DNA of 64,000 nucleotides from Terriglobales bacterium (GTDB lineage: Bacteria; Acidobacteriota; Terriglobia; Terriglobales; Acidobacteriaceae), in assembly GCA_035496875.1 (NCBI GenBank), contig DATJEH010000219.1:3791-67790 (forward strand), written 5' to 3'. Position numbers and translations under genes: made by a program. Positions 54,833 to 59,559 of the stretch are shown here, in pieces. Position 1 is the stretch's first letter. Every line of letters starts with the position of its first letter. Under the pieces are notes generated by a model. It was not told the origin of the DNA. It ran no database searches and saw only the letters and a program-made list of their open reading frames with translations.

Positions 54833-56239
<1,407 letters not shown>

Positions 56240-56356
56240 GCTTTCTCCGTGCTGGCGGTGGAGCCCGCCGTAGGGGCGACATTATGTCAAAAATTAACCT
56301 CTATGGCATTAAATTTTAGCCACCGGGGCGAATCACCCCTTTTCCCAAGTCGCTTA

Positions 56357-56385
56357 TTGCAACCCGGGCACACTTCCCGTATCTT
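56357..56385 (+). promoter_or_regulatory. candidate sigma-70 promoter of the STAS/kinase pair
   Basis: TTGCAA, 17 nt, TATCTT. Confidence 0.35.
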
Positions 56386-56442
56386 GGGCGACGCCTTTCT
56401 TCAGCGGCGGACGGCATGTCCCCGCTTCGGCACGAGGAAGCC

Positions 56443-56781
56443 ATGGACATCAATATGCAGCGGCGGTCACAGGTTGAGATCATCCAGTTGCGCGGCCCCC
56501 TGCGCCTGGGCCCGGCGGTCAACGAATTCCGCCAGGCGCTGGACCAGTCCCTCAGTAATGGCGACACCCGCATCGTTCTCGACCTGGCCGAAGTCCCCAT
56601 GATTGATTCCAGCGGCATTGGCGTGCTCATGAAGTCGCTGGCCTCCGCCCGCCAGCGCGGGGGCAACATCAAGCTGGTGAATCCCTCCAAATTTGCCGTC
56701 CAGACCCTGCGCATGGTGGGCCTGCTCAACCTGTTTGAGGTCTTTGCCGACGCGGACGCGGCTGTGGCTTCCTTCGCCTAA
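56443..56781 (+). CDS. STAS-domain anti-sigma-factor antagonist
   Basis: GAGGAAG SD before ATG 56443. MIDSSGIGVLMKSL contains the conserved phosphorylatable Ser context. Confidence 0.85.
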   Translation: MDINMQRRSQVEIIQLRGPLRLGPAVNEFRQALDQSLSNGDTRIVLDLAEVPMIDSSGIGVLMKSLASARQRGGNIKLVNPSKFAVQTLRMVGLLNLFEVFADADAAVASFA

Positions 56782-56789
56782 GCCCACCG

Positions 56790-57227
56790 ATGTCGCCCAC
56801 ACCCACTCCCGGCGCGAACCACTCCGGCCTGCGGCGCCAGCTTAGTCTGGCCATCCCTGCAGACGCAGAGCAAATCGCCCAGGCTACGGACGCTGTTCTG
56901 GCCTGCTTGGCGAACCTGAAGGTCGAAGGAGAGAAAAGCATGGCCATCGGCCTGGCGGTACAGGAAGCATTAGCCAACGCGGTGACCCACGGCTGCCAGA
57001 ATGACGCCTCAAAGATGGTGCAATGTGAGCTTAGCTGTGATGAGGACGGCCATATACTGATTGTGGTTACCGATCCCGGCCCCGGCTTCGATTTCTCCGC
57101 TGCCCCTAAGCCTGTGGTCCAGGACGTTTACAACGACCACGGCCGGGGCGTCTTTCTCATCCGCCAACTCATGGACGAGGTCAGCTTCGAGCGCGGCGGC
57201 AGCATCATCCAGATGTGGAAATTTTGA
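56790..57227 (+). CDS. RsbW/SpoIIAB-like anti-sigma factor Ser kinase (HATPase_c)
   Basis: QEALANAVTHG N-box, VTDPGPGFD G1-box, GRGVFLIRQLMDEV. Confidence 0.8.
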   Translation: MSPTPTPGANHSGLRRQLSLAIPADAEQIAQATDAVLACLANLKVEGEKSMAIGLAVQEALANAVTHGCQNDASKMVQCELSCDEDGHILIVVTDPGPGFDFSAAPKPVVQDVYNDHGRGVFLIRQLMDEVSFERGGSIIQMWKF

Positions 57228-57235
57228 GAACCGGG

Positions 57236-57300
57236 GTCAGAAGTCAGTAGTCCGGAGTCAGTAACACACCCGCCACGCAGCAAGGGTGTTGCTGACTACC
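57236..57300. repeat. heptamer-phased hairpin element downstream of the kinase gene
   Basis: GTCAG/GTCCG at 57236, 57243, 57250, 57257. AGTCAGTAACACACCC pairs with GGGTGTTGCTGACT (57256-57297). Confidence 0.65.
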
Positions 57301-57349
57301 GATTTACCTGTTGTTGAAGTATCGCTTGGTGGTGCGAAGGAAGGTGTCA

Positions 57350-57605
57350 GCCAAAAATTAAAAGGGCTGCGACATTGGTTACGTTCTAGCCACCGACTCT
57401 TGCGAGGGAGCCGGCAGCGTGGATACGTGCACCATCGCAGCCCCTGACGCGATCACCGCTTTCGCGGTTCCAGACCCCGACTTCTCCTCGCAGAGCCGTC
57501 GGTTTTTTCGGGTCCAGTTACCCAGCGGGTTGCCCCGCCTGGTTAATCACCCAGCTTACTTCGGACTGGCCAATTTGATTTAACCAACCCTTTCAGCCGT
57601 CGACG
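57350..57605 (-). ncRNA. candidate structured non-coding RNA of about 255 nt, family not recognised
   Basis: ORF-free gap. Minus-strand promoter TTGACT-17-TACCTT (57640-57612). Three GNRA-capped hairpins (57522-57542 GCAA, 57455-57468 GAAA, 57393-57414 GCAA). Closing 9-bp stem 57364-57372/57435-57443 followed by UUUUAAUUUUU. Confidence 0.4.
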
Positions 57606-57798
57606 CAAGTGAAGGTAAGGGCAACCACAAAAAAAGTCAACGCCGTTTGTTGGTGCAATACGTCCTCAGATTGCATTTATCGTTAGACGCGCAATCTGCT
57701 GAGCCGTTTCCATTTGCCGCGGCGCAGGAGCGCTCTCCCTAGTTTTCCACAACGTTTTGCACAATTCTTGTGGCTTATGGGATCGCCCTACAACCCGC

Positions 57799-58641
57799 CT
57801 AGCGATTTGAAACTAGTGTGTTCGTCTGTCGGTTGAGCAGGTTAGCCGCCTGCGCCAGAGTCAGGTGGGAGGAGACGCGGCGGTAATCGGACCGGATATC
57901 CTTCTCGCGCACGGCGATGGTCTTGAAAAAGAGCGCCTTGCCATTCATTCGGACGTTCATGTAGGTCACGTCCCACACTCCAGGAGCAATCTGCTCCTGC
58001 TTGACGTCAAAGGTGCCGCCCTTATCAAGATGACCCAGAAGACCGCCGGCAAACTTCACCTCCTGGTTCAAATGTCCTTGAATTCCGGCCAGGCGCTGCT
58101 GGCGGACGTCCAGCCAGAGTGACCCAACCATGTCATGGAATACGGTGGCCTTGCGGGACTGAGGGTGAAATTTGGGGTTGGGCTTGAAATTCAGCTTTAC
58201 TATTCCATCCTTGCGTTCGGCGTAGGAGTACAAGAACGCGTCGGGCAGCATTTGCAGGAGTTGCTGCGCCTGCTGCACGTCATTGCGGGTGGCTTCCTGG
58301 TTCTTGCGCTGCTCGGCGGGATCGGTGAGGAGCTTGTGCAGCCGCTCATCCTCTTTTCTCCGCTGATCCGGTGTCAGTGGGCGACCGTTGACGGCCAAGA
58401 GCCGTCGCAGCCAACCATGCGGCGTTTCCGCGACCTCCTCGGTTTTCATTTCGCCGCCGGATTGCGACTGCTGCAGGCGGAACATCCAGTAGCTGTTATC
58501 TTGCTTTTCCGCCTGGACCTCGTGGGCAATCACCCGGCGAACCAGTTGGCTGGCTGACTCTTGTGGGCGGCCTTGGGCGGCCGCACCCAGGACAAGCAGA
58601 GTTGCCGAAACCCAGCTTGCCCATATGGCTGCACGTCCCAT
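57799..58641 (-). CDS. secreted hypothetical protein
   Basis: Signal peptide WVSATLLVLGAAAQG. Balanced composition. No catalytic motif recognised. Confidence 0.6.
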   Translation of the reverse strand: MGRAAIWASWVSATLLVLGAAAQGRPQESASQLVRRVIAHEVQAEKQDNSYWMFRLQQSQSGGEMKTEEVAETPHGWLRRLLAVNGRPLTPDQRRKEDERLHKLLTDPAEQRKNQEATRNDVQQAQQLLQMLPDAFLYSYAERKDGIVKLNFKPNPKFHPQSRKATVFHDMVGSLWLDVRQQRLAGIQGHLNQEVKFAGGLLGHLDKGGTFDVKQEQIAPGVWDVTYMNVRMNGKALFFKTIAVREKDIRSDYRRVSSHLTLAQAANLLNRQTNTLVSNR

Positions 58642-58689: not shown

Positions 58690-59559
58690 CTATCGCAGGG
58701 CGGCGTAACTAGAAGCGCCAGCTCGGCGGGAACTCATACGCAGAATGCCGACCGCCGCCGCGTCGCGAACCGCCGGCTTACTATCGTCGAGAGCGAATTC
58801 CAGCCAGTGCTGCGTGCCGGGCCGCCCCATCCTGCCCAGGGCCATGGCTGCGGCCGCGCGCACCGACCAATCCCGGTCCATCAGCGCTGCCTTGAGTGCC
58901 AGCATGGTGGCCTTATCGGGGCGGCGCGAGAGCAGGTCGGCGCACGCGACCCGTGCCGGGTCGGTTCCGGCTGAGAACTGTTGCTTGGCCAGGCCTACGC
59001 CCATGGACAGCGGTCCGGGCAAAAATTCACCGGCGCCCTTTTCCGCCCCCATGGCAACCAGCGCTTTCTTGTCCTCGAGCTGGCGTTTGGCCTGGCGCTT
59101 ATGGCTGGCCACGAAGCCGTCCTTGGTTCCCTTGTCGCCTTGCAGAACTTCGAGCAAAACTCGCCGTCCGGCATTGTCGCCCAGCTGCCAAAGAGACTTG
59201 GCCGCCGCGAAGCTGACCTGCGGCGCTTCATCGTCCAGAGCCCTGCGCAACGCCGGAATCGCTGCTCGCGATTTCATTTCGCCCAGGGTAGCGGCGGCTT
59301 GCGCCCGCACATCCGGATCTTTGTCCTTCAAAACGGCTGCGACCAGGCGAACACCTTTGGGGTTGGGGCCCAGGTCGGCCAGAGCCTTCAGGGCAATGAT
59401 GCGTTCGGTGAATTTCTTTGCGTTCACCCCATCGGTCAGAGTTCGCCAGGCCCGCTCCGCCGGGGTTTCCACTTTGTGCAGCTTGTCCACCCCAGCAGCG
59501 GGAAGGACGCTCCCTAAAACCAGCAAAACCAGCCATCCACACACGATCGCGGCGCGCAT
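58690..59559 (-). CDS. secreted HEAT-repeat protein
   Basis: Signal peptide, then repeated D.D..VR..AA.ALG units (DKDPDVRAQAAATLGEM, DRDWSVRAAAAMALGRM, DSKPAVRDAAAVGI). Confidence 0.75.
   Translation of the reverse strand: MRAAIVCGWLVLLVLGSVLPAAGVDKLHKVETPAERAWRTLTDGVNAKKFTERIIALKALADLGPNPKGVRLVAAVLKDKDPDVRAQAAATLGEMKSRAAIPALRRALDDEAPQVSFAAAKSLWQLGDNAGRRVLLEVLQGDKGTKDGFVASHKRQAKRQLEDKKALVAMGAEKGAGEFLPGPLSMGVGLAKQQFSAGTDPARVACADLLSRRPDKATMLALKAALMDRDWSVRAAAAMALGRMGRPGTQHWLEFALDDSKPAVRDAAAVGILRMSSRRAGASSYAALR

Follow-up and report, generated by a model that had tools for sequence, protein, structure and literature searches.

What, if anything, is encoded in the 571-bp intergenic gap at 57228-57798 of a Terriglobales contig, between two convergent open reading frames (ORFs)? 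The gap lies in a stretch of 64,000 nucleotides (nt) from contig DATJEH010000219.1 (assembly GCA_035496875.1, positions 3,791 to 67,790), which is called the window here. A first-pass annotation, made from the letters alone, had proposed that the minus strand of this gap carries an independent gene, complete from promoter to terminator, for a novel structured RNA, and our analysis supported that proposal. We conclude with confidence that the minus strand from 57605 to 57353 is a real gene, 253 nt in length, of a new structured RNA family. Beyond what could be seen in the one sequence, we found that the gene is multi-copy, is confined to part of one Terriglobales family and is coupled to a paralog of RNase H. 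Terriglobales are among the most abundant bacteria of soil and peat; to our knowledge, their RNA biology is almost unexplored.

We examined 336 fetched loci, which yielded 267 distinct full-length copies of the gene. The gap had been described as free of ORFs, and this description held, in that its only ORFs are 31-54 amino acids (aa) long and none of these is kept in the 267 homologues. More generally, no reading frame is conserved (no ORF position is common to more than about half of the 267 copies), and the substitutions in stems are compensatory, which argues against a small coding ORF. We located the sigma-70-like promoter of the annotation (TTGACT, 17 nt, TACCTT on the minus strand) at 57640-57612 and found its boxes kept in other copies: the -35 box TTGACT (57635-57640; family consensus TTGACA) holds a fixed position across copies, and in the -10 box TACCTT (57612-57617), 17 nt past the -35 box, T1, A2 and T6 are kept (TAnnnT in the family). 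A third element, TTGCAC (57653-57658), precedes the -35 box by 12 nt and is kept in nearly all of 50 aligned copies whatever the upstream gene; it may be an activator site or a UP-like element. We considered a sigma-54 promoter, but by eye TTGCAC is not followed by GG at the required spacing; genes for sigma-54 activators do lie near 37 of 299 copies, although such genes are numerous and the loci are related.

The layout of the family is thus TTGCAC, 12 nt, TTGACA, a variable spacer of 17 nt, TAnnnT, six variable bases and an invariant CGUCGAC. Upstream of the RNA start, homologues share the promoter only. Conservation among them opens exactly at the predicted transcription start, 7 nt past the -10 box, and closes at the U-run, and even distant copies align from 57605 to 57353. 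The unpaired 5' tail CGUCGA (57600-57605, minus strand) is invariant and forms part of the palindrome CGUCGACG. This 5' motif persists in the second units of tandem dimers (described below), which have no promoter, and therefore it reflects a constraint on the RNA and not only on promoter-proximal DNA. At the 3' end, the basal stem GGGCUGCGA/UCGCAGCCC is followed by the U-run UUUUAAUUUUU (57363-57353) of an intrinsic terminator; a T-rich run is kept in other copies and similarity stops there. A simple consensus scan called neither the promoter, because the -10 box keeps only TAnnnT, nor the terminator, because the hairpin is long and branched. Conservation of the fixed-spacing -35 and -10 boxes, and of the GC-rich stem of helix P7 with its U-run, nonetheless marks a stand-alone small-RNA gene, from which we infer transcription of the minus strand.

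The proposed RNA has a well-supported fold. The predicted folding energy is -118.5 kcal/mol for the minus strand (z = -4.6; 0 of 200 shuffles as good) and -96.1 kcal/mol for the plus strand, and RNAalifold on 50 copies gave 74 pairs in 12 helical segments. In these copies 98.1% of alignment cells are paired, compared to 28-48% when partners are slid by 1-3 columns. Compensatory change among homologues had been named by the annotation as a check on its proposal, and it proved abundant: two-sided changes occur at 41 pairs, compared to 9-15 in the slid controls, and none of 500 shuffles attained any of the observed pairing measures. Similarly, when pairs were ranked by corrected mutual information over the 267 unique copies, those at the top were almost all nested Watson-Crick pairs of the fold; the same analysis gave no pseudoknot signal and no intermolecular covariation. 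Many conserved pairs are G-U, which would become A-C mismatches on the opposite strand. Thus, the fold is specific to the minus strand and to RNA.

All of the hairpins listed by the annotation, as well as the closing stem and the U-run, were found on the minus strand. At the 5' end, P1 (5 pairs, 3 compensatory) and P2 (8 pairs, 5 compensatory) occupy 57552-57599 and are joined by an internal loop, GAAA / GAAGUA, which by eye we take to be loop-E or sarcin-ricin-like. P3 (57550-57545/57454-57449; 6 pairs, 3 compensatory) then closes a junction from which the three arms of a central multi-branch domain (57449-57550) extend. The P4 hairpin (57520-57543) has compensatory changes at all 7 of its pairs and ends in a GNRA loop (GCAA at 57533-57530), whose variants are confined to GCAA, GUAA, GUGA and GCGA. 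The P5 arm (57470-57517) has an A-rich internal loop, CGAAAAAA (57510-57503), and a GCGA loop (57491-57488), both of them invariant, and its segments P5a, P5b and P5c comprise 15 pairs with compensatory changes at 5. The P6 hairpin (57456-57467), ACCGC-GAAA-GCGGU, is 100% paired, with its second pair CG in 25 copies and UA in 22. Finally, the 3' arm P7 (57362-57445), which is long and irregular and has three helical segments (29 pairs, 16 compensatory), is also the terminator hairpin; its tip, CUC-GCAA-GAG (57415-57392), carries the apical loop CCUCGCAA (57407-57400), in which CCUCGC is invariant and unpaired. The claim of three GNRA hairpins stood in part: GCAA in P4 and GAAA in P6 are as described, but the third loop has no conserved tetraloop, most copies having CCUCGCAG, and the invariant GCGA loop of P5, a fourth, and the invariant A-rich loop had been overlooked. 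We also considered a contact between the P5 and P7 loops, since GCGAG in the former is complementary to CUCGC in the latter, but both are invariant and so give no covariation readout; the sole exception is one divergent copy (L050), which has a matching double change at GCGAG/CUCGC.

We compared the RNA with 4227 models of Rfam 15, which include RNase P, tmRNA, SRP, 6S, riboswitches, raiA, OLE, ROOL, GOLLD, HEARO, Acido-1 and Acido-Lenti-1. Nothing overlapped the RNA in 56500-58500 even at E <= 10, nothing reached the gathering score in the entire window, and nothing lay over the RNA at E <= 1 in five related loci, with four relatives covered. Thus, the covariance-model search that the annotation had suggested produced no match, and its judgement by eye that the cores of several known RNA families are lacking was borne out. 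Its argument against a 5' leader or riboswitch was also confirmed: no gene on the same strand follows the RNA, whose intrinsic terminator is followed by a convergent gene, and among 299 copies there is no recurrent same-strand gene downstream. A search of the literature returned no description of this RNA.

We found the RNA widely within one family and in no other family that was sampled. By BLAST, 21 of 36 same-family relatives have 1-6 copies, compared to 0 of 24 genomes of the sister family. With a covariance model built from 50 copies, 65 of 151 same-family genomes were positive (61 of 142 genera; ~43%), and a scan of the same order identified 30 positives among 122 genomes, all in this family, with 0 of 28 in the sister family. 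A phylum-wide scan of 151 genomes gave nothing credible outside this Terriglobales family. Full-length scores are bimodal, such that a genome either has a match above 120 bits or has at most a fragmentary or weak one; the most distant variant (~124 bits) retains mainly the 5' domain. The sequence is highly conserved over at least 60 genera, and the 267 distinct copies span 246-259 nt, nearly all of them 252-257 nt. The 5' motif occurs on many soil metagenome contigs, and the named records that have it are all metagenome-assembled genomes from soil or peat, labelled Terriglobales, Acidobacteriaceae or Candidatus Sulfotelmatobacter. In three lineages we found two units fused head to tail (L338:251-752 (-), L339:243-742 (+) and L337:319-817 (-)), in which unit 1 has a promoter and no U-run, and unit 2 has no promoter, opens immediately with GGUCGAUGG or CGUCGACGG and runs to the terminator. 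This arrangement predicts a two-unit RNA of ~500 nt.

Clustering of the genes near the first 50 copies revealed an ORF of 133-190 aa divergent from the RNA in 23 of them. This protein matches Pfam RVT_3 (8e-24) and RNase_H (1e-13), as well as the NCBIfam models of RNase HI, the latter below their cut-offs. Its matches in the PDB are LC11-RNase H1 (3u3g), Halobacterium RNase HI (4e19) and the N-terminal domain of Rv2228c (3hst), all at ~1e-17, and Sulfolobus RNase HI (2ehg). Among 323 RNA copies with the 5' end in view, 280 had at least 1.2 kb of upstream sequence or a neighbour. In 162 of these 280, an RVT_3/RNase_H gene is divergent from the RNA at 192-330 nt (median ~257), and in 22 more it lies at 0.6-1.8 kb; for the other 96, at least 1.2 kb is free of any such gene. 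In the genus of the window, a gene for an XRE-type helix-turn-helix protein lies between the RNase H gene and the RNA. A GAF protein follows the paralog in 25 modules, and the remaining neighbours vary (sigma-54 activators, DinB, universal stress proteins, SpoIIE-type phosphatases).

The spacer between the two divergent genes has its own conserved features (~140 loci, e.g. L326 and L059), namely two CTGTGNA direct repeats ~12 nt apart and a TTGACG on the RNase H side. The latter could be the -35 box from which the RNase H gene is read, and the spacer elements are candidate sites for a regulator common to both divergent promoters.

The linked paralog is distinguishable from the ordinary enzyme. 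In a protein search of 151 family genomes, nearly all had one housekeeping paralog (~45% identity, E from 1e-21 to 1e-30). Of the 65 RNA-positive genomes, 63 also had a second paralog (48-100% identity, E < 1e-31) beside an RNA copy, whereas all 86 RNA-negative genomes lacked it. (The tallies for the paralog, and those for 6S RNA and RVT_1 below, include two unpublished genomes, G014 and G036, which contribute no sequence and are absent from the RpoB tree; both are RNA-negative, with 6S RNA present and the housekeeping paralog only.) A protein search for homologues of the paralog beyond the family gave, among the 120 matches listed, close soil relatives only. The first three catalytic residues (D, E, D) are kept in the linked paralog, which also carries a pair of conserved cysteines missing from the housekeeping enzyme. 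We recognised two subtypes, an Asn form (L015:851-1252 (-) and relatives) and an Asp form with a C-terminal tail (L002:311-796 (-)): the fourth catalytic Asp is replaced by Asn in the directly adjacent subtype, and is Asp in the subtype of the source genome and in the housekeeping enzyme.

The RNA and this paralog are inherited together. We built a tree with FastTree from the C-terminal 757 residues of RpoB in 50 RNA-positive and 50 RNA-negative genomes. In an initial RpoB tree, 19 negatives formed one clade, and presence was patchy in the other large clade. Presence of the RNA requires 20 changes on the final tree, at least 8 of which are forced by well-supported branches. Across 8 independent contrasts on supported branches, the paralog changes in step with the RNA in an average of 7.9 and against it in none (sign test, p ~0.008). 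The module is at times duplicated as a unit.

From this adjacency and co-inheritance, we think it probable that the RNA acts in trans with the dedicated RNase H paralog as its partner, be it as ligand, regulator or substrate; we are far less sure of any particular direction of control. The founding arrangement would have been a two-gene module, with the RNA transcribed away from an RNase HI-type paralog ~257 nt upstream. An abundant folded RNA would then act in trans as the specific partner of the RNase H-like protein, which it might bind as a regulator or decoy, serve as a scaffold, or meet as a substrate to be cleaved, and extra RNA genes might raise the dose of RNA or regulate it differently. 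A bolder version, which we hold only tentatively, is that the two make up a hitherto undescribed ribonucleoprotein system, in which the RNA, compactly folded and possibly dimeric, directs, gates or is processed by the nuclease, the pair being kept or discarded as a unit by soil Acidobacteria and the orphan RNA genes serving as additional regulated inputs. A search of the literature found no account of a comparable partnership between an RNA and an RNase H. The clear genetic partner makes the role of the RNA directly testable, in that one can ask what a structured RNA does with a dedicated RNase H.

Several observations weigh against such a partnership. About one third of the copies, that of the window included, are without a nearby RNase H gene, and two RNA-positive genomes, G064 (78% complete) and G084, are without the special paralog. 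The Asn at the fourth catalytic site leaves it uncertain whether the directly adjacent subtype is active. The matches in metagenome collections are DNA contigs of at least 1 kb and not transcripts. The RpoB tree is of one gene and was made with a fast method, and the adjacency could come in part from shared descent. In addition, assembly gaps remove adjacent genes together and thereby inflate co-absence, although most of the RNA-negative genomes are 96-100% complete and several consist of a single contig.

We compared the RNA and its paralog with known systems. The raiA motif, OLE, ROOL and GOLLD are loosely similar, each with a stand-alone or loosely linked gene, an intricate multi-helix fold, invariant loops, strong covariation and restriction to one lineage. 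The new RNA nevertheless does not match their Rfam models, belongs to another phylum, is multi-copy and RNase H-coupled, and is shorter than OLE, ROOL and GOLLD; we know of no report of RNase H coupling for any of the four. It forms a large RNA class that is strongly supported by covariation and unrelated to any Rfam family. RNA-only homodimers or oligomers have been reported for raiA, OLE or ROOL, and the tandem-dimer variant hints at self-association of the new RNA, as for this class; if it does self-associate, the short list of natural RNA assemblies would grow. Like 6S RNA (RF00013) and mycobacterial Ms1, the new RNA, in the size range of ~200-300 nt, has a promoter and terminator of its own, is likely to be abundant and stable and to act in trans, and may exist as paralogs. 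However, 6S RNA is a rod with a central bubble, whereas the new fold is multi-branched and has no such rod, and 31 of 36 family relatives have a separate RF00013 gene, so we rejected the new RNA as a substitute for 6S.

The other comparisons involve nucleases. ColE1 RNA II is likewise a structured RNA tied to an RNase HI-type enzyme. As a pre-primer of replication, RNA II hybridizes with its template, and no terminator lies where it is cleaved. The new RNA, by contrast, stops at a strong intrinsic terminator, is encoded by a multi-copy chromosomal gene and comes with an enzyme paralog of its own; nothing indicates an origin function. ToxIN (type III) also combines a nuclease gene with a folded-RNA gene, and the new RNA is in tandem in some lineages. 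ToxI, however, consists of 36-nt repeats in an array that immediately precedes the toxin gene and has the same orientation, while here a single 253-nt unit is divergent from a protein gene ~257 nt away that encodes an RNase H fold and not a ToxN fold; moreover, PADLOC gave no match. Retron RNAs resemble the new RNA in being structured and near a gene of a Pfam 'reverse transcriptase-like' family (RVT_3). RVT_3 is the RNase H domain only, and RNase H matures retron DNA. No reverse transcriptase gene adjoins any copy, and RVT_1 is equally common whether the RNA is present (26 of 65 genomes) or absent (36 of 86), so we rejected a retron or reverse-transcriptase template. As for a known defence system, PADLOC identified only weak helix-turn-helix matches for the paralog, the XRE gene, the 280-aa neighbour of the window copy and the GAF protein.

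If the RNA is not the partner of the RNase H paralog, it might be self-sufficient, as a ribozyme, a ligand sensor or an RNA-only homodimer or oligomer, with the RNase H adjacency a matter of inherited gene order. Nearly all of the 253 nt are constrained, and the three GNRA loops, the A-rich loop and the loop-E-like loop are typical of RNAs with a tertiary fold. The invariant palindrome CGUCGACG at the unpaired 5' end and the ~500-nt fused units of three lineages, with no terminator between, fit a dimeric unit, and one third of the copies are unlinked to an RNase H gene. However, inherited order can hardly explain the absence of the paralog from all RNA-negative genomes together with co-loss in 8 of 8 supported contrasts, nor did we detect a pseudoknot or intermolecular covariation, and we therefore regard self-sufficiency as rather unlikely, if the most credible of the alternatives. 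Base pairing with mRNAs is a weaker candidate still. The invariant, unpaired CCUCGC of the apical loop is C/U-rich and resembles an anti-Shine-Dalgarno sequence, so that it, or the 5' tail, might repress mRNAs, with paralogs like the Qrr or Rsm siblings, and a small RNA of this kind would be expected to have what is seen here, several copies of a gene that stands alone between its own promoter and a Rho-independent terminator. But conservation extends to all helices and loops instead of one seed region, and the length and GNRA-rich architecture are unusual for seed-type small RNAs. The one candidate target that we inspected, the leader of the paralog mRNA, is unconserved in the spacer alignment, which led us to reject pairing there, and co-loss with the RNase H gene is left unexplained. 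We thus consider this explanation unlikely.

The accessory nature of the module, its patchy distribution and its repeated loss would also suit something like a toxin-antitoxin or defence module, in which the RNA, made in abundance, neutralises an RNase H-like nuclease that could do harm; so would its duplication as a unit, the excess of RNA genes over protein genes and the fused tandem RNAs. We nevertheless judge this improbable, since no PADLOC defence model matches, the genes are divergent where those of type III systems are co-directional, the flanks are ordinary chromosomal genes in genus-level synteny with no islands or mobile genes, and the sequence is highly conserved over at least 60 genera. 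Finally, the multi-copy state and the place of the window copy, 190 nt after a same-strand gene, might mean that there is no RNA gene at all, but either the 3' untranslated region of the 280-aa gene or a repeat at the DNA level, for instance a miniature mobile element. We hold this to be very improbable: the promoter is kept in every context, including behind a divergent upstream gene, the fold, with its many G-U pairs, belongs to one strand, neither terminal inverted repeats nor target duplications are present, and the 1-6 copies per genome occupy syntenic places. Thus, a trans-acting RNA that works with the dedicated RNase H paralog is the explanation that we prefer.

The window copy itself is an unlinked, 'orphan' paralog that retains the whole promoter-RNA-terminator unit. 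It is the top match of the covariance model (289.7 bits, full length), is 93-97% identical within the genus, and is found in the same place in species with assembled flanks. The source genome has three RNA copies: that of the window, which has no RNase H gene beside it; a linked copy on contig C228, in the order RNase H gene, XRE gene, RNA; and a partial copy at the edge of contig C12. RF00013 was not matched in this genome (G000), compared to 9 of 12 other genomes of the genus with a match, and the missing 6S RNA is probably due to an assembly gap (91.6% complete, 301 contigs).

On the upstream side of the window copy, the 280-aa ORF (57799-58641, minus strand) has no match in Pfam, NCBIfam or PADLOC and is kept across the genus, on the same strand and directly upstream of the RNA. 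Beyond it, also on the minus strand, lies a gene for a HEAT-repeat protein (58690-59559). On the other side, genes for a STAS protein (56416-56781, plus strand) and an RsbW-like kinase (HATPase_c_2; 56790-57227, plus strand) form a partner-switching set that adjoins a sigma-54 activator, a sigma-54-dependent response regulator (54833-56239, minus strand), such that the whole spans 54833-57227. Other RNA copies have SpoIIE-type phosphatases, universal stress proteins and Ser/Thr kinases nearby. Just past the RNA terminator and the stop codon of the RsbW-like gene, at 57236-57300, we noted a run of CTGAC-type, heptamer-like repeats that can form a hairpin, and runs of the heptamers CAGTTCC/CAGTTCT follow RNA copies in a different paralog context (L034, L036, L039 and L045).
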